A stretch of 36,452 nucleotides of DNA from a virus. The notes below the pieces were generated by a model. It was given only the letters and a program-made list of their open reading frames with translations, ran no database searches and was not told the origin of the DNA. A program made the translations under genes and the position numbers. The stretch lies in the IMG/VR virus record IMGVR_UViG_3300045988_087108, positions 1 through 36,452 of that record; one strand, written 5' to 3'. Position 1 is the first letter of the stretch; every line of letters starts with the position of its first letter. Positions 6,031 to 36,452 of the stretch are shown here, in pieces.

Positions 6031-8157
6031 ATGAGAATGCGAAGAGTGATAAAGAACTTAATAGGGGGGACAGCGTTCCAAGACGTACCTCACATTGACC
6101 TGGACAAATACTTGACTGGAGACTTCACCAGTGGAAGCTCACGTATGAACAACTACTCATCAAAACGCTCACAATTGAGAGCTAACATAGGCTGGGTGTT
6201 TGCTGCCAACAGTGCGATATCAGAAGAGTGTGCCTCAGTGGAGTTGAAACTATACAAAAAGAGAAAGAATGGCGACCGAGAGGAAATCTTTGACCACGAA
6301 ATCCTAGACTTACTGAAGAGACCGAACGGCTGGCTCAGAGGCTCACAGTTCTGGAGCTTGTACTATCAATACATGAACCTCACAGGAGAAGCCTACATTC
6401 TGAAAATGCGGAACGGGGAAATCATGGATGTTGCCTCTGACCAGTTACCACATGCCTTACACGTTGTACCGTCTCACCTAGCAAACTTGAAACTGGGGGA
6501 CAGCCGAGAAGACAGTGTGGTGAACTTCCTAGGACACGATATCCCTCTTGATTGCTTTATCCGAGATATTAACCCAGACCCAGACAATCCGTATCAAGGT
6601 AGAAGTATCATCAAAGCTTCAGCCATGGCGTTAGACACGGACTACCGAATGCGAGAGTGGAACAGGGGATTATTCGCCAACGCAGCACGACCATCAGCTG
6701 TACTAGAAGTACCAGACGTAATGACCGATGAAGTCTACCAAAGATTAAGCAAGCAAATGGACGAGGCTCATGCGGGCAGTGATAACGCCTTTAAGCAGAT
6801 TATCCTGGAGGGTGGAGCTAAGTTAGTGCCGTACTCTCTTAACCAGCAAGACCTAGACTTCCTAGAATCACGGAAGTTCTCCAAAGACGAGATATTCGCT
6901 ATGTTCAGAACCTCACCGTCTATCGTAGGGATGACCGAAGATGTGAACCGAGCCAACGCTGAAGCTCAAGACTACACCATGGCAAAGCGCGTGGTGTTGC
7001 CACGAGTGAGAGGACTGAAAGAGTTATTGAACGTTGAGCTGGTGGAGAAATACGACCCAGCACTAGAGATTGACTTTGTGAACCCAATCCCAGAAGACAA
7101 AGCCCAGGAGTTAGCAGAGGACGCTCAAGGAGTGAACAAGTGGTTGACGATTGATGAAGTGAGAGAGAAGCGAGGACTGCCACCGTTAGAGAATGGAGCA
7201 GGAGCGGTTCTGTATCGACCTTTGAACGAAGTGCCGATTGACATGTTGACAGACATAGTAAAACCAGAGACGGAAGCCCCACAAGAGAGCGAAACCCCAA
7301 CAGAGGAGGGTGAGAAGAGCCAAAAAAAAGATGAGGACGAGCTGGAAGCAATAGGCGAGGCGAAATCCGTCTTGTACACCCGACAGGCGAGACAGTACGA
7401 GAACCTCATTCTAAGAGCCTCTAAGGCGATGTTTAACGCACAGAGGGAAGATGTGTTGAAATGGTTGCAGAACGCCCTCAAAACGTATCCTACAGCCTCA
7501 CAGAAGCAAAAAAAGGAAATGCTGGACGACATGGCAGACTGGGAGAAGTACCAATCAGAGTTTGCAGCGACAATGAAACGGATATACGCCATGATAATCG
7601 AGGAGACGGGGAAAGACGCACTGGACGCACTCAATCTGAACGACGATATCCTATTCGACCCAATCAGTCTCAGGATACAGAGGTTCTTGGAGACCGAGCC
7701 GCTGAAAGCCTCCACCACCATCACCGAGGAGACCAAGAAGCAGATACGGGCAGCATTGTCTCAGGGAATGATGAACGGGGACAGTCTCCATGAATTAACT
7801 GAGAAAGTAAATCAGATATTCGGATACGCAGCACAAGACCGAGCCTACAAGATAGCAGAGAGCGAGACCACGAGAAGCCAGGGCTTTGCAGATGTGGAAG
7901 CGTGGAAGCAGTCGGGACAAGTAACCGCCAAACGCTGGTACACATCAAAAGACGAACGAGTGTGCAAGTTTTGCGGGACTATGCACAACAGGACAGTCTC
8001 AATTGACGACAATTTCTATAACAAGGGGGACAGTATGGTAGTGCCGAGAGAGAACAAGAGCGACGCCGTATTGAACTTTAACTATGAGGATATCGCCCAC
8101 CAACCGCTACATGTGAGGTGTCGCTGTGTGCTACTACCCGTGATGAAAGATTTGTAG
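6031..8157 (+). CDS. Portal protein (HK97-family portal, about residues 1-410) fused to a MuF / SPP1 gp7-like head morphogenesis domain (about residues 445-708).
   Basis: Portal-like NPDPDNPYQGRSIIKASAMALDTDYRMREWNRGLFANAARPSAVLEV. Acidic linker ETEAPQESETPTEEGEKSQKKDEDE. MuF-like ESETTRSQGFADVEAWKQSG...WYTSKDERVCKFCGTMHN...CRC. Confidence 0.8.
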   Translation: MRMRRVIKNLIGGTAFQDVPHIDLDKYLTGDFTSGSSRMNNYSSKRSQLRANIGWVFAANSAISEECASVELKLYKKRKNGDREEIFDHEILDLLKRPNGWLRGSQFWSLYYQYMNLTGEAYILKMRNGEIMDVASDQLPHALHVVPSHLANLKLGDSREDSVVNFLGHDIPLDCFIRDINPDPDNPYQGRSIIKASAMALDTDYRMREWNRGLFANAARPSAVLEVPDVMTDEVYQRLSKQMDEAHAGSDNAFKQIILEGGAKLVPYSLNQQDLDFLESRKFSKDEIFAMFRTSPSIVGMTEDVNRANAEAQDYTMAKRVVLPRVRGLKELLNVELVEKYDPALEIDFVNPIPEDKAQELAEDAQGVNKWLTIDEVREKRGLPPLENGAGAVLYRPLNEVPIDMLTDIVKPETEAPQESETPTEEGEKSQKKDEDELEAIGEAKSVLYTRQARQYENLILRASKAMFNAQREDVLKWLQNALKTYPTASQKQKKEMLDDMADWEKYQSEFAATMKRIYAMIIEETGKDALDALNLNDDILFDPISLRIQRFLETEPLKASTTITEETKKQIRAALSQGMMNGDSLHELTEKVNQIFGYAAQDRAYKIAESETTRSQGFADVEAWKQSGQVTAKRWYTSKDERVCKFCGTMHNRTVSIDDNFYNKGDSMVVPRENKSDAVLNFNYEDIAHQPLHVRCRCVLLPVMKDL

Positions 8158-20988: not shown

Positions 20989-21327
20989 ATGGCAAAACAG
21001 ACAAATACAGAGCTGCTTCATGAGATTGACAAGAAAGTGGCAGTACTTTCGGAGGGGCTTTTGAGCTTAGCTCAGAGAATGACGAAATTAGAGAAAGCAA
21101 TCGCAGAAATGCAGATGGTAACGCCTCAGTCTTTACAGGCTTATGTGGAACTGCATGCTAAAGAACATGAGTTTCTAAACAGTAAAATCAATGACCACGA
21201 GGACAGGTTAGACACCATCGAGGGGACAGAAAAGCGGATTTACAAAAATGTTACCGCAGTGGTAGTAATCGGCTTAGTCATGATGGTGCTGTCAAGCTAT
21301 GGACTTGATAAGTTTTTTAGACCATAA
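20989..21327 (+). CDS. XhlA-like lysis-associated membrane protein.
   Basis: Coiled-coil N-terminus plus a single C-terminal TM helix (VTAVVVIGLVMMVLSSYGL). Directly upstream of the holin. Confidence 0.5.
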   Translation: MAKQTNTELLHEIDKKVAVLSEGLLSLAQRMTKLEKAIAEMQMVTPQSLQAYVELHAKEHEFLNSKINDHEDRLDTIEGTEKRIYKNVTAVVVIGLVMMVLSSYGLDKFFRP

Positions 21328-21354
21328 TAAAAAGAAAACAAAAGGAGAACAAAA

Positions 21355-21594
21355 ATGGAACTAGAAAAAAAGACAACTCGCAAACTGTCAATCGCAGTAG
21401 GATTATTGGCGTTCGGCGCGTTCATTATCCAGGGTCTTGGTGATATCTGGGGCTTCCAGGCAATCGCGAAACAATTGACGGCGACAGCTTTGTTGGTCGC
21501 TGGTGGTGTGAACGTTTACTTCCTTGGTGTTACTAACCAGAAGAACAACCAAGACAAGAAACAGGCAAAAGAAACTGACAAGACGGAGGCTTAA
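21355..21594 (+). CDS. Holin (two TM helices, charged C-terminus).
   Basis: 79 aa. Helices LSIAVGLLAFGAFIIQGLG and LTATALLVAGGVNVYFLGV, with tail NQKNNQDKKQAKETDKTEA. Adjacent to the endolysin. Confidence 0.65.
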   Translation: MELEKKTTRKLSIAVGLLAFGAFIIQGLGDIWGFQAIAKQLTATALLVAGGVNVYFLGVTNQKNNQDKKQAKETDKTEA

Positions 21595-21596
21595 TC

Positions 21597-23717
21597 ATGA
21601 AGAAATTAGCTTCCAAACTGAAAGAAATCGTTATCAATCGGCTAGATGTATTGATAGTCGCAAGCGTTATCATCATATCATCTGTGTTTTTAATCATAGG
21701 CAAACCCTCAGAGGACGGCAGTATCACACTGGACGGCTCAAAGGCGAAATACTCAAAGTCTACCGAAAAAGCCTTGTGTGAGCTAGCCAAAAAGCGTGAA
21801 ACGGCGATTGCTGGCATGCTTGGTCTAGACGTACCGCAAGATAAAGGCTCAGGTTGCGACCCTGTGGACAAAGAATTAGCGCAGATGGGTTCTGGCGTCT
21901 ACTACAAGACCGACCTATCAAGTCCTGCGGCGTTCGTCAACGCAATGAACGGGCGAGGCTTTAACGAGGGCTACGGTTTCCAGGCTCACTCTAAATATGC
22001 TATAATCAAGATGGCAGACGGTAGCGTTAAACGTGTTACCGACCTAAGAACTGGAGACAAGGTTATGAACTCAAGCAGCATAAAAGTTAATACTGTTAAA
22101 GATTTGTGGACAAGCGATAATAAAATCTATCGCATGCGTACTACAGCTGGCGATTTGATGTTGTCTGGTGAACACCCAGTGCTGGCTGTAAAAATGTCTC
22201 AGCACCAGAGTGACAATCTGCAGAGAGACCTCGCAACAAGCCCAGATAAATACAAAGGTAAATTCGCATGGACTAAAACTGAAGATATCTCAAAGTTTGA
22301 CCGTATAGCTGTTACTATCCCAGCGTCAGGGACACGCTCTAGATTAACCGATTCTGAATTACGCTTGGTGGGTTACTGGTTGGGCGACGGCGATAAAGTC
22401 TACTACCACAAAAACAGCGACGCACATGGCTTTCGTATCACTTCAAATGACGAAAAGAAAGCGTTTATCGACAGTCTTGGTTTAGATGTTACTTGGACGA
22501 GACACTCTAACGGTAAAGCCTGGACTGGTACTATCCGCCCGTCAGATGAGCTACGCAAGGTACTGGATAGTCTTGGCAGGTATTCAAACGATAAGCAATT
22601 CCCATATAACTTCTCGACTGAGCAAAATAAATTAGTACTTGAGGGATATATAAAAGCTGATGGTCATGAAAAGCGAGCCAATAACTATGTAGTCTCATCA
22701 ACTTCTAAAACACTGCTCACGCAAATGCAAGCGATTGCCTGGCAAAACGGCTATAATGCTTCAATTCAGCTTGTGCGGAGAGCTGGTACTGAAACTAACC
22801 TCGGCAAATCAAACTACGATTTATGGCAACTTAATGTGAACACGAAGCCGGTACGTAAGCAGATAACGTTTATATCTGGCGTACCAACAGTATCTGTTGT
22901 TAATAACGATATGCTAGATGAAGAGAAGACGTACTACATTGAAACTGATGGCGACCATACTTACATTGCAGACAATCACCAGGTGCATAACTGTGTGGCG
23001 GGCTTTAAGCAGTTTATGTTCAGCCTCTCAGGACGCGTGGTGGCGACCCGCACTGGTGGAGCGAGTGGATACGCTAACCAGGTCGGCGAAATCCAAGCAC
23101 TCGGCTTTACATGGCACGCTGGGCAGGCTGGTATGAAAGATGGCGACTGGGCAATCTTTGGCGGTGGAACGTACGGACACGTCGCTATGTATTATCAGGG
23201 TAAGTTTTTCGGACAGAACCAGGGCAGTGGCAATATCTATGTTGGTAATGCGTTTAATTTGATGGATTTGGGCGGCTACCGCAACTCGATTATCGGCTAC
23301 TATCGTCCAAATATCTGGAATGGCACTGCTAGCGCGCCAGCCGCTCCAGCAGCCAACTCAAAAACAGTGAACGACCAAGTTGTTGCAGATGTCTTGCGTG
23401 GTGTGTACGGCAGCGGCAATGACCGCGTATCACGGTTGCAAGCCGCTGGCTACAATCCAGCCGAAGTGCAAGCAGCCGTTAATTCACGTGTAGCAAGTAC
23501 TTACCCACGTGTCCAGACACCCGTAGCACCCTCTGTAAGCTCATCAGCGTACGTTGTGAAGCGCGGGGACACTCTTGGCGGTATTGCGCTCAAGAATGGC
23601 TGGTATCGCTCTGTAAACGGCTTATATGGCGACTCAGGCTATGCCCAGGGATTGGCTAATAAAAACGGAATAGCCAACCGCGGACTAATATTTCCTGGAC
23701 AAGTCATACGAAACTAG
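21597..23717 (+). CDS. Endolysin: N-terminal signal-anchor/TM, CHAP amidase/peptidase interrupted by an intein, CW_7 (Cpl-7) repeat, and LysM.
   Basis: After intein removal the sequence reads NEGYGFQ-CVAGFKQFMF (CHAP catalytic Cys motif), then GHVAMYY (His motif). CW_7 is VNDQVVADVLRGVYGSGNDRVSRLQAAGYNPAEVQAAVN. LysM is YVVKRGDTLGGIA...FPGQVI. TM is LDVLIVASVIIISSVFLIIG. Confidence 0.85.
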   Translation: MKKLASKLKEIVINRLDVLIVASVIIISSVFLIIGKPSEDGSITLDGSKAKYSKSTEKALCELAKKRETAIAGMLGLDVPQDKGSGCDPVDKELAQMGSGVYYKTDLSSPAAFVNAMNGRGFNEGYGFQAHSKYAIIKMADGSVKRVTDLRTGDKVMNSSSIKVNTVKDLWTSDNKIYRMRTTAGDLMLSGEHPVLAVKMSQHQSDNLQRDLATSPDKYKGKFAWTKTEDISKFDRIAVTIPASGTRSRLTDSELRLVGYWLGDGDKVYYHKNSDAHGFRITSNDEKKAFIDSLGLDVTWTRHSNGKAWTGTIRPSDELRKVLDSLGRYSNDKQFPYNFSTEQNKLVLEGYIKADGHEKRANNYVVSSTSKTLLTQMQAIAWQNGYNASIQLVRRAGTETNLGKSNYDLWQLNVNTKPVRKQITFISGVPTVSVVNNDMLDEEKTYYIETDGDHTYIADNHQVHNCVAGFKQFMFSLSGRVVATRTGGASGYANQVGEIQALGFTWHAGQAGMKDGDWAIFGGGTYGHVAMYYQGKFFGQNQGSGNIYVGNAFNLMDLGGYRNSIIGYYRPNIWNGTASAPAAPAANSKTVNDQVVADVLRGVYGSGNDRVSRLQAAGYNPAEVQAAVNSRVASTYPRVQTPVAPSVSSSAYVVKRGDTLGGIALKNGWYRSVNGLYGDSGYAQGLANKNGIANRGLIFPGQVIRN
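21984..22991 (+). mobile_element. In-frame 336-aa intein with a LAGLIDADG homing endonuclease. It starts with Ala, and Cys+1 is the CHAP catalytic cysteine.
   Basis: Block A-like AHSKYAIIKMADGSVKRVTDLRTGDKV. Block B LSGEHPVL. LAGLIDADG motifs LVGYWLGDGDK and LVLEGYIKADGHE. Blocks F/G TYYIETDGDHTYIADNHQVHN|C. Confidence 0.8.
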
Positions 23718-23771
23718 CTAAAATAAAGACGGTGGCTACTTTCTAGCGGTAGCTTCCGAAAACTCCGCGAC

Positions 23772-23810
23772 GAGACCCTTTTTCTTTTTCTGGTGAGGGT
23801 CTCTTTTTTT
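23772..23810 (+). terminator. Rho-independent terminator at the end of the late operon.
   Basis: gagaccct ...16 nt... agggtctc (8-bp perfect stem) followed by ttttttt. Confidence 0.8.
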
Positions 23811-23875
23811 ATGAGAGTTTTCCACAACTCTAACTGGGGTAAACAGAAAAATATAGAAAAATAAGCATAAAACCA

Positions 23876-23904
23876 TTGACAACGTAAGCACGGTTATGTA
23901 TACT
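23876..23904 (+). promoter_or_regulatory. Early promoter P2 (TTGACA-17-TATACT) with the TAAGCACG spacer element.
   Basis: ttgaca acgtaagcacggttatg tatact. The downstream ttataacataaccatt is shared with P3. Confidence 0.75.
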
Positions 23905-23960
23905 TATAACATAACCATTCGGTTACATATAAACTTAAACTCATACGGAGGATAAACGAA

Positions 23961-24284
23961 ATGACAACGACTAAAAAAATTACTAAACGCGACATTGACA
24001 ACATCCGAGAGTTTGCCCAGAGCGGTTACATCAAAACTGCTTCTGAATGGACTACTGGCTCTGGTCGCTACACCAAACGACGCTCTACACCAATCTTTAC
24101 TAAAGAGTATACTCGTATGGACTTTATGTTGGTGGAGGAGGGCTATACGAAACTCTGGCAACTTACATATCAAGAGCGTATGGCGTACGATTACTTGAAA
24201 AATCACCCTCGCGTGCAACGTGTTTTGGTGATGGATTTTGAGAAAGTTCTAAACGCTCTTCACGGCGTTGAGGTCGAGTGCTAA
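23961..24284 (+). CDS. Hypothetical early protein.
   Basis: ORF with an ACGGAGGA RBS downstream of P2. Confidence 0.6.
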   Translation: MTTTKKITKRDIDNIREFAQSGYIKTASEWTTGSGRYTKRRSTPIFTKEYTRMDFMLVEEGYTKLWQLTYQERMAYDYLKNHPRVQRVLVMDFEKVLNALHGVEVEC

Positions 24285-24330
24285 CAGAACCAACAACTAA
24301 ACTAATAATTAACCTACGGAGAACTTAAAA

Positions 24331-27525: not shown

Positions 27526-27766
27526 AACCACTAAACCTGTCCAAAATGACGAAAGCGTGTTCAATCTTCACTATGAAGTGGGCAAGCTGATTGGCAAGAT
27601 TGAGATACTTGAGGACAAAATCAAGACACAAGAGAAAGCTCAAGAGCGTACAGCAGAGAATATCCAAGCTTTGTGCGCAACGATTGAAAACTTGAGCAGA
27701 GCGATTAAAGCTTTGGGAGACTACTGCGACAGGCTTGACAGGCGATTAGAGAGCCACGACATGTGA
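27518..27766 (+). CDS. Hypothetical coiled-coil protein.
   Basis: ORF with a GGAG RBS and heptad-like sequence. Confidence 0.5.
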   Translation: MNKTTKPVQNDESVFNLHYEVGKLIGKIEILEDKIKTQEKAQERTAENIQALCATIENLSRAIKALGDYCDRLDRRLESHDM

Positions 27767-27772
27767 AACTGG

Positions 27773-27839
27773 AAAAATACCCGTCTTTCGCACTAAAACC
27801 CCGCAGAGGGCGTTAGAACGCGAAATAGCGGGTATTTTC
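27773..27839 (+). terminator. Long imperfect hairpin, possibly a terminator, at the end of the P3 transcription unit.
   Basis: aaaaatacccgtctttcgc ... gcgaaatagcgggtatttt: 10-bp and 6-bp helices around a loop of about 28 nt, flanked by A and T tracts. Confidence 0.4.
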
Positions 27840-27978
27840 ATTGGAAGCGATAGGCGTTATAATCAAAGAGCGAATGGACGGTAAAAAGTTGAACGAAATG
27901 AGCTAGTCAGCCAATCTGTTCGCAAAACATCAATTTTTTACAGGCTGGCTGGCTTTTTTCGTGGAATAGGGGAAATCT

Positions 27979-28737
27979 ATGTACGATTTTGAAAATCAAA
28001 GAGTTGTCGAGCCACCTCGGCAGTTTACTGGTGTCTGGATACCAAAAGAGGTCTTGCTAGATGACAGATTGACTGGTGCTGAGAAAATACTATACGCCGA
28101 GATAGCTAGTTTCGGTGATAAAGGCTGCTGGAAAAAATCTGAAGAGCTGATGAAGCTTGCGGGCGTAAGAACCTCTACTTTTCAGGCTTCCTGTCGTAAA
28201 CTGGTGTCTCTTGGCTATATCACTCAAAAACGACAATTCAGCAGAATGGTGCGGTGGTCTAATCTTGGCTTCGGAGCAAGCTGTTCAACGCAGTGTAATT
28301 CACATCAACGTGAAACTCAACGCGTTGCACCCGTTAAAATTCAACGCGATGCACCCGTTAAAATTCAACGCGTTCATAAAGATAACACAAAAGATAACAC
28401 AAAAGATAACACAACTACGGGAGATAAACTCCCGGCGGTTGATGGAAGCTTAAAAAAAGAAAAAGATGATGAAATTGCAAGGCTGTACTACCAAGTAATC
28501 AAAGCTCTGTCATTACCAGTGGCAAATCACAATGTAGTGAGGGCAAAGATAGCCGAGATGAAAAGGACGTACACAGAGCAGGTCTGTATTGATTATTTGA
28601 CGTTTATGCGGGACAGGTACAGCAGCTGGGAAACAAAATACAAGCCACAAGTCAGTAACGCCCTGGACATTTACACGAAATCAAGACAAATCATGAGCAG
28701 GCTTTGGGAAGACAACAAAGAGCAGGAGGTCTTTTGA
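27979..28737 (+). CDS. Replication initiator-like protein (N-terminal winged-helix/HTH) containing the putative origin.
   Basis: N-terminus FTGVWIPKEVLLDDRLTGAEKILYAEIASF...SEELMKLAGVRTSTFQASCRKLVSLGYI is typical of phage replication-initiator HTH domains. The central linker is encoded by iterons, as in the lambda O arrangement. Confidence 0.6.
   Translation: MYDFENQRVVEPPRQFTGVWIPKEVLLDDRLTGAEKILYAEIASFGDKGCWKKSEELMKLAGVRTSTFQASCRKLVSLGYITQKRQFSRMVRWSNLGFGASCSTQCNSHQRETQRVAPVKIQRDAPVKIQRVHKDNTKDNTKDNTTTGDKLPAVDGSLKKEKDDEIARLYYQVIKALSLPVANHNVVRAKIAEMKRTYTEQVCIDYLTFMRDRYSSWETKYKPQVSNALDIYTKSRQIMSRLWEDNKEQEVF
28285..28434 (+). repeat. Iteron array / putative origin of replication inside the initiator gene.
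   Basis: TCAACG at 28285, 28305, 28317, 28341 and 28365. Two 24-bp units tcaacgcgWtgcacccgttaaaat (28317-28364, 1 mismatch). Three 12-bp units gataacacaaaa (28381-28416). Hairpin cgggag-ataaa-ctcccg (28418-28434). Confidence 0.65.
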
Positions 28738-33197: not shown

Positions 33198-35069
33198 ATG
33201 GCAAACTTCTCTGGGTTAAATACCCTCTTAAACGAAATTGACAAAACAGTTTCAGACAAAATCGATGATAAAATCAGCAACGAAATACCAGAGCTGAAAA
33301 AGCTGGTAAAAAACGCTGAGAAATCTATCAAAGAAAATCTGCCGATGAAAGTCGAGTACGACGGCAAGCTACATGACGTTAAAGGTCTACGCCACAAAGC
33401 GTTGGATAATCTTATTGTGATGGCTTCGCAGAAAATCCCCGTGCTGTTAGTCGGAATGGCAGGGTGCTTTGCGAAAGGCACAGAAGTGCTTACAGCAAAC
33501 GGATATAAGCCAATTGAGGAAATCACAGAGGGCGAAGTCGTGGCAAGCTTTGATAATGAGCAGATTGTTTATAATAAGGTCGCTCAGACAGCTAGGATTG
33601 ACGACCAGCCAAAACCAATGATACAATTTAGATATGGGAATGAAACAATCAGAGCTACCTATGACCACCCTTTCTTCGACGGAGAAAGATATTATCCGCT
33701 CTATCAGCTTGCCTGGAGAGATATGGAGACAAGCCAAAGGATTCAGCTCAAACTATTATGCGAGCAATATGGGCAGACTTTTGACTACAAAACATCACGG
33801 GGGGTATCATATCGCGATTCTCAAACCTGGGAAAGACAAGGACGGGCATTTACGAACAGCGATGAACGGAAAAACTGTCAAGGTACACAGAGTGGTGGCT
33901 CAGACGTGGATACCCAACCCAGAAAACAAGCCAGAGGTGAATCACAAGAACTCAAACCCTGCCGACAACAGAATAACGAACCTGGAGTGGGTTACACACC
34001 AGGAGAACGTAAAACACGGTTACGAGAATGGAAGAATAAAAGAGTCGTTAGCCAAGGCAGTTGCAAAAACACGAAAGTACGACAGAGACGAGCTGCGAGC
34101 GATACAGAGATGGTGGGACACTCATACTGCTTCAGTGGGGAAAAAGGATTGGAAAGCAAGACACCAATTGTTAGAGCAATTGCAGAAGATGTATCCGCAC
34201 ATAGCGAAAACGACGCTCAAAAATATACGACTAAAGCGAGACATTTACAAGACGTTGTAGTTCTTGAGGCTGAGCCATACTATGCCTTAAGCATTGAGAA
34301 TGTCCATACCTATATTGTCAGTAGAGAAAACCTGCCTGTTCATAATACAGGAAAGACGCACGCTGCTGCTCAAGTCGCTGAGGCACTGGGATTAAGCCAC
34401 TACACAATGTCTGTAGGCGCTCAAACATCTAAATCAGACATAATCGGCTACATGCACGCCTCTGGCGGTTACGTGCCGACGCTCTTCCGAAAAGCATATG
34501 AGGAGGGCGGAGTATTCTTGATGGACGAAATCGACGCTGGCAATGCTAACGTCCTTATCCAGGTCAATGCGGCGCTTTCTAACGGCTTCTGTGCCTTTCC
34601 AGACAAGATGGTGGAACAACACAAAGACTTTGTCTTTATCGCCTCTGCTAACACGTTTGGAAACGGTGCTAACCGTATGTACGTTGGTCGTAACCAGCTT
34701 GACGCTGCTACCCTTGACCGCTTTGCCGTCTTAGTCTGGGACATTGACGAGAAGCTGGAAGACAAAATGACAGAAGCCTACGGAGACACTGGCAAGAACT
34801 GGCTCAAGGTGGTGCGAGAGCTGAGAAAGACTATTGAGAATGACGGTATCCGAGCTTTGGTAACGCCACGTGCTACTATTAAAGGTTGCTCTTTACTAAA
34901 TATCGGGCTTGACTTTGAGACTGTCCTAAACGCTGTGATTGTGGAAAACTTGCCGAGCGACAAGAAGTCTCGCTACCGCGACATGGCTAAGAAAAAATGG
35001 GACGAGACTTCCGAAACTGAGAAAGCACACGAGACAGCCGAGGCGGAAGAAGCTGAGATAATCTGGTAG
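33198..35069 (+). CDS. AAA_5 (MoxR/CobS-like) ATPase precursor with an intein in the Walker A loop.
   Basis: Exteins join as PVLLVGMAG-TGKTHAAAQVAEALGL (Walker A GxxGTGKT). Walker B GGVFLMDEID. Downstream DAATLDRF. Confidence 0.85.
   Translation: MANFSGLNTLLNEIDKTVSDKIDDKISNEIPELKKLVKNAEKSIKENLPMKVEYDGKLHDVKGLRHKALDNLIVMASQKIPVLLVGMAGCFAKGTEVLTANGYKPIEEITEGEVVASFDNEQIVYNKVAQTARIDDQPKPMIQFRYGNETIRATYDHPFFDGERYYPLYQLAWRDMETSQRIQLKLLCEQYGQTFDYKTSRGVSYRDSQTWERQGRAFTNSDERKNCQGTQSGGSDVDTQPRKQARGESQELKPCRQQNNEPGVGYTPGERKTRLREWKNKRVVSQGSCKNTKVRQRRAASDTEMVGHSYCFSGEKGLESKTPIVRAIAEDVSAHSENDAQKYTTKARHLQDVVVLEAEPYYALSIENVHTYIVSRENLPVHNTGKTHAAAQVAEALGLSHYTMSVGAQTSKSDIIGYMHASGGYVPTLFRKAYEEGGVFLMDEIDAGNANVLIQVNAALSNGFCAFPDKMVEQHKDFVFIASANTFGNGANRMYVGRNQLDAATLDRFAVLVWDIDEKLEDKMTEAYGDTGKNWLKVVRELRKTIENDGIRALVTPRATIKGCSLLNIGLDFETVLNAVIVENLPSDKKSRYRDMAKKKWDETSETEKAHETAEAEEAEIIW
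33465..34346 (+). mobile_element. 294-aa contiguous intein (Cys1 ... His-Asn, Thr+1). Its central linker is overprinted by an out-of-frame HNH endonuclease ORF.
   Basis: Block A CFAKGTEVLTANG. Block B IRATYDHPFF. Blocks F/G DVVVLEAEPYYALSIENVHTYIVSRENLPVHN|T. The roughly 190 codons between them are polar and low-complexity, and have no stop in the host frame. Confidence 0.8.
33634..34260 (+). CDS. HNH homing endonuclease (NUMOD4 + HNH_3) encoded in an alternative frame inside the intein. The start codon is uncertain.
   Basis: EIWRQAKGFSSNYYASNMGRLL (NUMOD4-like). VHRVVAQTWIPNPENKPEVNHKNSNPADNRITNLEWVTHQEN is paralogous to 422-943. Its stop at 34258-34260 coincides with the start of the intein C-terminal blocks. 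Confidence 0.75.
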   Translation: MGMKQSELPMTTLSSTEKDIIRSISLPGEIWRQAKGFSSNYYASNMGRLLTTKHHGGYHIAILKPGKDKDGHLRTAMNGKTVKVHRVVAQTWIPNPENKPEVNHKNSNPADNRITNLEWVTHQENVKHGYENGRIKESLAKAVAKTRKYDRDELRAIQRWWDTHTASVGKKDWKARHQLLEQLQKMYPHIAKTTLKNIRLKRDIYKTL

Positions 35070-36314: not shown

Positions 36315-36452
36315 CAAGAAAATGACTAGAGGAGAGGTCGTCAAACGACTAGATTCAATCTTCTCTAAATGGGTCAGGCTCAGGGGTGCGAAAATCACCC
36401 CTGACGGTAGGATATTGAACAAGTGCTGTACGTGCGGAGTGGTTCAAGACAT
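36304..36452 (+). CDS. ninG: 5' end of the NinG-like gene. It continues through the circular junction into 3-425.
   Basis: AAGGAGAA RBS, then ATG 36304. Translates to MKTNKKMTRGEVVKRLDSIFSKWVRLRGAKITPDGRILNKCCTCGVVQD, in phase with the ORF at the window start. Confidence 0.75.
   Translation, partial: MKTNKKMTRGEVVKRLDSIFSKWVRLRGAKITPDGRILNKCCTCGVVQD
36398..36452. repeat. Second copy of the 55-nt terminal redundancy (identical to 1-55).
   Basis: Exact identity by direct comparison. Confidence 0.95.

Follow-up and report, generated by a model that had tools for sequence, protein, structure and literature searches.

A LAGLIDADG intein with an alanine start at the catalytic cysteine of a Saccharibacteria phage endolysin: a candidate for class 2-type protein splicing

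A viral DNA sequence of 36,452 nucleotides (nt) (IMG/VR record IMGVR_UViG_3300045988_087108, positions 1 to 36,452; the whole stretch is called the window below) encodes an endolysin precursor of 706 amino acids (aa) whose catalytic domain is interrupted by an intein that begins with alanine (Ala1). Our analysis of this gene points to a functional homing intein in a phage lysin, and we consider it likely that it splices by a class 2-type route, in which the first residue after the intein (Cys+1) attacks the N-terminal junction directly. The intein is probably a second, independent example of class 2, which would have arisen from lysin inteins that start with cysteine, independently of the archaeal KlbA inteins. 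Direct attack by Cys+1 is the best reading because the gene is under purifying selection, the Ala1 inteins form an old clade that occupies three CHAP families, one member of that clade (P0050) has shed its endonuclease motifs and kept its splicing blocks, and no other lysin was detected. The analysis itself establishes the anatomy of the gene, the insertion site, the empty alleles, the selection, the phylogeny and the lack of other nucleophiles; splicing and the order of its chemical steps are what we infer.

The intein lies immediately before the CHAP catalytic cysteine

The intein comprises residues 130–465 of the precursor, between Gln129 and the catalytic Cys466; it begins with AHSKYAIIKMADG and ends with HQVHN (coordinates of this and all other features are given in Table 1). 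Deletion of these residues in silico yields the continuous stretch ...GYGFQ-CVAGFKQF... A protein identical to the 706-aa precursor exists in public data (P0001), and a search of 5.8 billion proteins for homologues recovered intein-containing relatives at 88%, 59% and 39% identity (P0002, P0003 and P0004, respectively), all of which start with AH[SA]K and end with VHN-C. Intein-less relatives (P0006–P0009) read G[YF]G[LMF]Q-CVAGFK without a gap.

When one genome per bacterial species was scanned, empty alleles of the same gene came to light in metagenome-assembled genomes (MAGs) of Candidatus Saccharibacteria and in Nanosynbacter sp. TM7-087 (L020–L024 and L029), which are 95–99% identical across the 141-aa spliced catalytic domain. 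When the window is aligned to these alleles with blastn, the matches break exactly at 21983/21984 and 22991/22992, with both halves directly abutting in the subject sequence (1618 to 1619 in L021). The element is therefore a 1008-bp presence/absence polymorphism, and its position immediately before the CHAP catalytic cysteine makes that cysteine the +1 nucleophile. The original prediction, made from the letters alone, had placed a 336-aa intein at the catalytic cysteine of a CHAP lysin; the intein-less homologues and the blastn breakpoints bear this out to the base, and the alignment to CHAP lysins that it proposed as a check shows the empty homologues to be contiguous at GYG[LMF]Q-CVAGFK. The empty-site DNA of the intein-less alleles reads TTTAACGAGGGCTACGG[C/A][T/A]T[G/A]CAG-TGTGTGGCAGGCTTTAAGCAGTTT. 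Position -2 is Phe in the intein-plus alleles and Leu or Met in the closest empty alleles.

The host domain is best read as a CHAP domain. Its Pfam match emerges only after in silico removal of the intein and is weak (E 0.002), with the spliced protein scoring 18.9–20.7 bits against PF05257, under the gathering score of 26; seven of the eight spliced domains of the family match PF05257, the best at E 1.8e-5. The best sequence match in the PDB is the CHAP domain of LytN, whose GWQC and GH align with GLQC and GH, and Cys466, His528 and Asn541 are invariant. A model of the spliced domain (predicted local distance difference test (pLDDT) score 74) matches the CHAPK domain of LysK (4csh), LysGH15 (4olk), PlyGRCS and PlyPy with moderate strength (probability 1.0, template modelling score ~0.5, E 3e-3). 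The model places the 32 N-extein residues that lead up to the junction in one helix of the CHAP fold. Sixteen of these residues are invariant positions, common to homologues with and without the intein.

Sequence blocks and predicted fold of the insert

On its sequence and its modelled structure, the insert is a LAGLIDADG intein with a HINT fold and a predicted endonuclease. Pfam matches across it are weak (LAGLIDADG_3, PF14528, E 9e-5; Intein_splicing; Hint). A profile built from 25 sequences of the intein family matches solved inteins, namely gp41-1 (1.5e-14) and also PI-SceI, DnaB and PRP8, and finds KlbA (2jmz) weakly (E 1.8e-4). An AlphaFold2 (AF2) model of the intein with short flanks reached a pLDDT of 93.3 and a predicted template modelling score of 0.91, and in Foldseek it comes closest to PI-SceI, to the VMA inteins of Tli and Pho and to PI-PfuI and PI-PkoII (for PI-SceI, Tli VMA and PI-PfuI, probability 1.0 and E 2.7e-16 to 8e-11); free LAGLIDADG enzymes including I-DmoI, I-Tsp061I and I-SceI come next. 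The earlier identification of the insert as a LAGLIDADG intein thus agrees with the family profile, with the HINT-fold model and with the presence of blocks A, B, F and G. Block F was numbered by ungapped alignment to the KlbA positions quoted in PMC2807308. The Ala1 codon is GCT in four diverged alleles, down to 39% identity.

In the window and in L010 the second LAGLIDADG motif is KADGHE; in P0002/L011 it is KAGGHE, with Gly for Asp. Some alleles that are otherwise 93% identical may already have an inactivated endonuclease.

Closer matches were sought in several collections. Megablast of positions 21000–24300 against 50,697 phage records gave zero matches, and tblastn against the phage records returned only a weak intein match in a Mannheimia phage methyltransferase, in addition to CW_7 and LysM matches. 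The single intein sequence found no PDB sequence at E<=1 with phmmer, and it is unmatched in PHROGs.

Three other identities of the insert were considered and rejected. A group I intron is ruled out by the continuous reading frame and the protein-splicing blocks, and a bacterial intein-like (BIL) domain by the +1 nucleophile, the endonuclease and the empty alleles. A shifted boundary with Ser3 as the nucleophile is ruled out as well, position 3 being S, A, R or P across the clade.

Assignment to a splicing class

The sequence departs from two of the three recognized splicing classes. Class 1 inteins have Cys, Ser or Thr at position 1, which here is Ala; class 3 inteins carry Trp at B:12, Cys at F:4 and Thr at G:5 (the WCT signature), for which this intein has Val66, Tyr318 and Val334. 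It contains zero cysteines, and the whole precursor has only three (C61, C87 and C466). With Ala1 and no cysteine, neither the N-terminal thioester of class 1 nor the block F thioester of class 3 is possible. What is present agrees with class 2: Cys+1, Ser or Thr at B:7 and His at B:10, with neither an N-terminal nucleophile nor WCT. Class 2 is defined by the absence of these last two features (PMC2807308), so the intein is class-2-type by the published definition. The block B Ser/Thr-x-x-His, the His-Asn and Cys+1 do not vary within the Ala1 clade; the F:4 residue is Y, H or N, and no Ser, Thr or Cys is conserved across the clade at positions 1–3 or at F:4. The original prediction had correctly read Ala1, a block F without Cys and a Val before His-Asn, and had rightly set class 3 aside. 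It left the choice between a class-2-like and a degenerate intein, of which the first is favoured by purifying selection, by the age of the Ala1 clade and its spread over three CHAP families, and by splicing blocks that outlast the endonuclease.

Four columns separate the Ala1 clade from 41 relatives that start with Cys or Ser: Ala1, His or Gln at position 2, Trp42, and Glu320 at F:6. In the relatives, position 2 is Phe, Leu or Pro, and F:6 is mostly Asn, Thr or Ser. By analogy with KlbA, Glu320 could supply the carboxylate that Asp F:4 gives there, since F:4 and F:6 share one face of a beta-strand.

In the route that we favour, the thiol of Cys+1, which is the catalytic cysteine of the lysin, would attack the Gln129–Ala1 peptide bond directly, with Ser61 and His64 of block B assisting. 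Cyclization of Asn336 would then release the intein, and an S-to-N shift would join the exteins into GYGFQ-CVAGFKQF and restore the CHAP active site. The unspliced lysin should be inactive, because its nucleophile would be buried in the active site of the intein and the two CHAP halves lie 336 residues apart. That splicing may act as a lysis clock, as the original prediction proposed, is likewise a reasonable conjecture.

Distribution, phylogeny and selection

Searching 1.84 billion cluster representatives (50%-identity clusters) with the intein returned 317 matches. Approximately 45 of the best 50 of these are CHAP/NlpC-like lysins in which the intein stands immediately before the catalytic Cys, so that, in sequence data, the original view of an intein in an endolysin as seemingly rare does not hold. 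In the literature, a full-text search, which leaves subscription journals mostly uncovered and in which absence is not proof, found no publication describing an intein in an endolysin; a survey of mycobacteriophage lysins states that none of 224 Lysin A genes has an intron or intein (PMC3314691). Lysin inteins thus appear to be common in metagenomic data and apparently undescribed.

In a bootstrapped neighbour-joining tree of 46 lysin inteins, all eight Ala1 inteins group as a single clade (bootstrap 88), nested among Cys1 lysin inteins. Ala1 is kept in at least eight clusters, down to approximately 28–39% identity. The clade occupies three CHAP families, with the junctions GxQ-CVAGF, GWQ-CSKY and NRE-CVSY; intein-less homologues confirm the boundaries in the first and third of these, and the boundary in the GWQ-C family is placed by motif alone. 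For the P0016 group, a boundary at the upstream Cys of STCWNRE was ruled out, as the intein-less homologues read NRE-CVSY.

P0050 has lost both LAGLIDADG motifs and retains Ala1 and blocks A, B, F and G, which indicates that selection acts on splicing itself. When the window is compared with L001 (77.5 synonymous and 23.5 non-synonymous differences), the ratio of non-synonymous to synonymous rates (dN/dS; NG86 method) comes to 0.063 in the intein, against 0.074 in the N-extein and 0.075 in the C-extein. Between alleles, intein DNA is 90% identical at the nucleotide level compared with 82–83% in the flanks (dS 0.48 versus 0.90 and 1.73), and this higher similarity fits homing or gene conversion. 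The lysin with its intein turns up again in independent oral metagenomes, and also in integrated form, as a prophage.

Distant relatives of the intein stand at the catalytic Pro-Cys of C5 cytosine DNA methyltransferases (GxP-C...HN-CQxFSxAG), among them P0054, P0056, P0062, P0067, P0091–P0096 and others, as well as one in Mannheimia phage vB_MhS_587AP2 at 27584–28435. In these enzymes the +1 nucleophile is again the catalytic Cys of the host protein.

Weighing of alternative explanations

Several points weigh against splicing by direct attack of Cys+1. Where KlbA needs Asp at F:4, this intein has Tyr and its clade mates His or Asn; at G:6 it has His335 in place of the Ser of the KlbA inteins (PMC4031507). 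Each experimental change of Cys1 or Ser1 to Ala in class 1 inteins blocks splicing, and the one earlier candidate outside KlbA and without WCT, the Gly1 'intein' of Arthrobacter FB24, is a pseudogene (both PMC3196547). A single unsaturated pair underlies the dN/dS values; homing by itself could in principle account for the purifying selection on the endonuclease part; and of the 26 Pfam families in our scan for a second lysin, one is unlisted. The Arthrobacter case is also the precedent for regarding the present element as dead, with Ala1 inactivating it and the lysin never maturing, so that it would be a decaying remnant in a defective prophage or one rescued by another lysin. We hold this to be very improbable. 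The frame is open over 2.1 kb with dN/dS of 0.06–0.07 in all three parts, Ala1 is conserved across its clusters and CHAP families, the phage genome is complete and circular with intact structural genes, and the allele recurs in several samples; no second lysin family was detected among the 50 other open reading frames of the window (Pfam scan, 25 of 26 families listed), and no other lysin family is on record around P0003 or P0004. It is hard to see how an element unable to splice could have moved between essential lysis genes and survived down to approximately 30% identity. That the intein stays in place for good and the CHAP domain folds around it, active without splicing, is scarcely credible: the N and C termini of a HINT domain are adjacent in space, and the AF2 model has the usual fold, but the catalytic Cys would be held in the active site of the intein with its amide bonded to Asn336, and this reading would leave unexplained why all clade members keep Asn336, His335 and block B so strictly.

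Two further readings accept a working intein and differ in its chemistry. Cleavage without ligation, which we think unlikely, would have Asn336 cyclize and free a soluble Cys466-...-CW_7-LysM fragment from the anchored N-extein–intein, the intein serving as a self-cleaving pro-region or release device. C-terminal cleavage is indeed typical of Ala1 mutants and of the C+1A mutants of KlbA (PMC2807308), His-Asn-Cys is intact here, and release from an N-terminal membrane anchor could be useful, all eight Ala1 inteins being in lysins with a transmembrane segment. The N-extein speaks for ligation, however. Its 16 invariant positions are contiguous with the Cys in intein-less enzymes, it keeps a dN/dS of 0.07 in intein-plus alleles and makes a helix of the CHAP fold in the model, and its residues by the junction are equally conserved in intein-plus and intein-minus alleles, which favours ligation over mere C-terminal cleavage; moreover, block B keeps its His and Ser/Thr throughout the clade, residues that only the N-terminal junction requires. 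Alternatively, a hydroxyl of a Ser or Thr within the intein might attack the N-terminal junction first, by an oxyester route resembling class 3. We know of no precedent for such a route and judge it decidedly improbable. Thr53 and the Ser/Thr at B:7 are conserved, and the clade has signature residues of its own in His/Gln2, Trp42 and Glu F:6, but F:4 is Tyr, His or Asn in the clade, leaving the class 3 position without a conserved nucleophile, and the Cys1 relatives conserve Thr53 and B:7 just as well, so that neither is specific to Ala1.

Membrane anchoring and depletion of cysteine

The original prediction of an N-terminal transmembrane segment or signal anchor in the lysin proved sound (~aa 11–34, Kyte–Doolittle mean 2.07). 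The segment is also found in intein-less alleles and is therefore a feature of the lysin family that the intein did not bring. Its predicted topology is N-in/C-out, because the N side is rich in Lys and Arg (positive-inside rule). All eight Ala1 inteins reside in lysins with N-terminal transmembrane segments, compared with four of the 38 Cys1/Ser1 inteins (Fisher's test, 2e-6, with shared ancestry not corrected for). The Ala1 inteins hold 1.5 internal cysteines on average, three of the eight having none, versus a mean of 4.8 other cysteines in the Cys1/Ser1 inteins. The one Ser1 intein in a lysin with a transmembrane segment, P0031, has no internal cysteine either. Disulfides between catalytic cysteines block splicing, according to the passage of PMC4031507 that cites its references 79, 99 and 100.

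This pattern in the sequences suggests that the Ala1 inteins work on the outer side of the membrane. We put forward, only tentatively and as something we would not expect to be true on present odds, that the cysteine-free Ala1 intein is an adaptation to splicing outside the cytoplasm, the anchored lysin being translocated unfolded and then folding and splicing on the wall side. Loss of Cys1 and of the other cysteines would then avoid oxidative traps in the form of Cys1–Cys+1 disulfides, and the single free thiol of the lysin would serve both splicing and catalysis. Activation would depend on export and on the redox state of Cys466, making the lysin an intein-gated zymogen that would help to time lysis.

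The only cysteines besides the catalytic one, Cys61 (21777–21779) and Cys87 (21855–21857), lie in the N-extein linker after the membrane anchor and are kept in the closest intein-less alleles (KALCELAKK and GSGCE). A disulfide between them is possible and would fit an extracytoplasmic location.

Lysis cassette, phage genome and host

Downstream of the catalytic domain the lysin carries a CW_7 cell-wall-binding repeat and a LysM domain (Table 1). P0005 (391 aa) is a module swap of this arrangement: its N-terminal anchor region and its CW_7-LysM C terminus are nearly exactly those of P0002, and its CHAP domain is unrelated and intein-free (GAYGSQCWDLANLF...). The holin-like gene directly upstream has no Pfam match; its position beside the lysin is conserved in Saccharibacteria prophages (blastn of 21342–21573 to L020–L023).

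Exact terminal direct repeats of 55 nt (1–55 and 36398–36452) close the window into a complete circle of 36,397 bp; its predicted genes all lie on the + strand. A near-identical lysin stands beside an integrase at the end of a 181-kb scaffold. The host is a TM7 bacterium (Candidatus Saccharibacteria) of the human mouth: near-identical intein-free lysin and holin genes are found in TM7 genomes and MAGs, such as that of Nanosynbacter sp. TM7-087. A related allele (72%) occurs on a contig that bears the label Leucobacter sp. G161 but may come from an epibiont within an actinobacterial assembly.

Another gene of the window, NinG/Rap-like, which starts at 36322 and continues across the circular junction, looks 'fractured', with a naturally split intein: after an N-extein with the end ...NVHPQ come CLTEDSKL... 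(96 aa) and a stop codon, then a free-standing HNH_3 endonuclease reading frame, and then a C-intein piece of 33 aa that ends with GLAHHN before CKRCNIFLKGNY... It resembles the gp41-1/NrdJ-1 type of split inteins from metagenomes. The third intein of the window interrupts the Walker A P-loop of an ATPase; its middle is of low complexity, and no recognizable endonuclease motif was seen there.

Table 1 Features of the endolysin gene, its intein and other elements of the window (aa, amino acids; positions are those of the window)
Feature	Position	Strand	Details
Endolysin precursor gene, 706 aa and stop	21597..23717	+	GGAGG ribosome-binding site 9 nt upstream
Transmembrane/signal-anchor hydrophobic segment, N-terminal, ~aa 16–34	21642..21698	+	Kyte–Doolittle window mean 2.07
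N-extein part of CHAP domain, aa 98–129, ...YYKTDLSSPAAFVNAMNGRGFNEGYGFQ, residue -1 = Gln129	21888..21983	+	16 invariant residues, dN/dS 0.074
Intein, 336 aa, Ala1...His-Asn336	21984..22991	+	Zero Cys; HINT splicing domain and LAGLIDADG endonuclease (predicted)
Block A (AHSKYAIIKMADG)	21984..22022	+	Ala1 codon GCT; His2 clade-specific; residue-for-residue alignment with Cys1 of related inteins
Trp42	22107..22109	+	Invariant in Ala1 clade, absent from 41 Cys1/Ser1 relatives
Block B (LMLSGEHPVLAV)	22155..22190	+	Ser61 (B:7), His64 (B:10), Val66 (B:12, not Trp)
First LAGLIDADG motif (LRLVGYWLGDGD), GYWLGDGD	22359..22394	+	Structural match to PI-SceI, I-DmoI
Second LAGLIDADG motif (LVLEGYIKADGHE), YIKADGHE	22632..22670	+	Asp intact
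Blocks F and G (TYYIETDGDHTYIADN HQVHN)	22929..22991	+	Tyr318 F:4, Glu320 F:6, His325 F:13, Tyr327 F:15
Block G residues	within 22929..22991	+	Val334 G:5, His335 G:6, Asn336 G:7
Cys466 (TGT), +1 splice nucleophile and CHAP catalytic cysteine	22992..22994	+	Homologue alignment
C-extein part of CHAP domain	22992..23321	+	Cys466, His528, Gln-Asn-Gln 540–542 invariant
CW_7 cell-wall-binding repeat, aa 593–631	23373..23489	+	Pfam PF08230, E 4.7e-13
LysM domain, aa 652–705	23550..23711	+	Pfam PF01476, E 5e-7
XhlA-like coiled-coil protein with C-terminal hydrophobic tail, part of lysis cassette	20989..21327	+	Weak Pfam matches DUF7201, DUF16, XhlA
Holin-like 79-aa protein, two hydrophobic segments, directly upstream of lysin	21355..21594	+	Function suggested by position
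Split intein of NinG/Rap-like gene (135–1013)	N-intein 135–422; HNH reading frame 422–943; C-intein 915–1013
Third intein, 294 aa, Cys1...VHN, Thr+1	33465–34346, within reading frame 33198..35069		Walker A P-loop (GMAG-...-TGKT) of AAA/AAA_5 ATPase
Portal protein (Phage_portal, aa 56–382) fused to Mu-F-like head morphogenesis domain (aa 570–701)	6031–8157		One 708-aa reading frame

Relation to known systems and implications

Reviews give KlbA genes as the sole known source of class 2 inteins (PMC3196547, PMC4031507). The present intein shares with those of Methanocaldococcus jannaschii and its archaeal orthologues Ala1, Cys+1, the lack of WCT, Thr or Ser at B:7, His at B:10 and a C-terminal Asn, as well as the expected chemistry, in which Cys+1 attacks the N-terminal peptide bond directly (PMC2807308, PMC4031507). 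It is nevertheless not an orthologue: its nearest relatives are Cys1 lysin inteins, the family profile scores KlbA far below the best class 1 inteins (1.8e-4 against up to 1.5e-14), and besides the differences at F:4 (Tyr versus Asp) and G:6 (His versus Ser) it has a signature of its own in His/Gln2, Trp42 and Glu F:6. Whereas the KlbA host is an archaeal protein, the host here is a lysin of a bacterial phage, and the intein carries a LAGLIDADG endonuclease; that of M. jannaschii KlbA is a mini-intein of 168 aa.

The metagenomic Cys1/Ser1 inteins of phage CHAP and NlpC/P60-like lysins (P0010, P0011, P0015 and P0018–P0045, for example) are homologous to it at 28–39% identity and share the LAGLIDADG architecture, Cys+1 and the insertion point; P0021 even lies in the same lysin family. 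They differ in their first residue, Cys in 39 of 41 and Ser in the other two, which leaves the standard class 1 route open to them. Class 3 inteins of the mycobacteriophage Bethlehem DnaB type are likewise phage-associated and without an N-terminal nucleophile, but need Trp B:12, Cys F:4 and Thr G:5 and usually have Ser/Thr+1, where this intein has Val, Tyr, Val and Cys+1. PI-SceI, the other VMA-type inteins and PI-PfuI have the same two-domain fold, HINT with a two-motif LAGLIDADG enzyme, and are the best structural matches; they are only 11–15% identical, belong to class 1 (Cys1) and occur in eukaryotic and archaeal genes for an ATPase or a ribonucleotide reductase. Finally, group I introns interrupt the lysin genes of phages of Gram-positive bacteria, such as those of S. 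thermophilus and lysK of staphylococcal phage K. They too are mobile elements associated with homing endonucleases in a phage lysin gene, but are removed as RNA, whereas the frame in the window is continuous and holds protein-splicing blocks.

Why Cys+1 attacks an amide directly in class 2 and never in class 1 inteins is described as unresolved by the authors cited for these classes. A second Ala1 lineage with close Cys1/Ser1 relatives at the same site, including P0021, would offer a natural comparison set for this question, with His/Gln2, Trp42 and Glu F:6 as candidates for the residues that enable direct attack. A compact, cysteine-free intein from which the endonuclease could be removed, and which would need only a +1 Cys, would also be of interest to protein engineers. 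If the extracytoplasmic reading were true, this would be the first extracytoplasmic intein as well as a second, mechanistically distinct origin of class 2 splicing. The lysin intein in any case takes inteins from cytoplasmic enzymes of DNA and nucleotide metabolism to a membrane-anchored, probably exported cell-wall hydrolase, and puts them on record for the phages of Saccharibacteria (TM7), about whose biology almost nothing is known.

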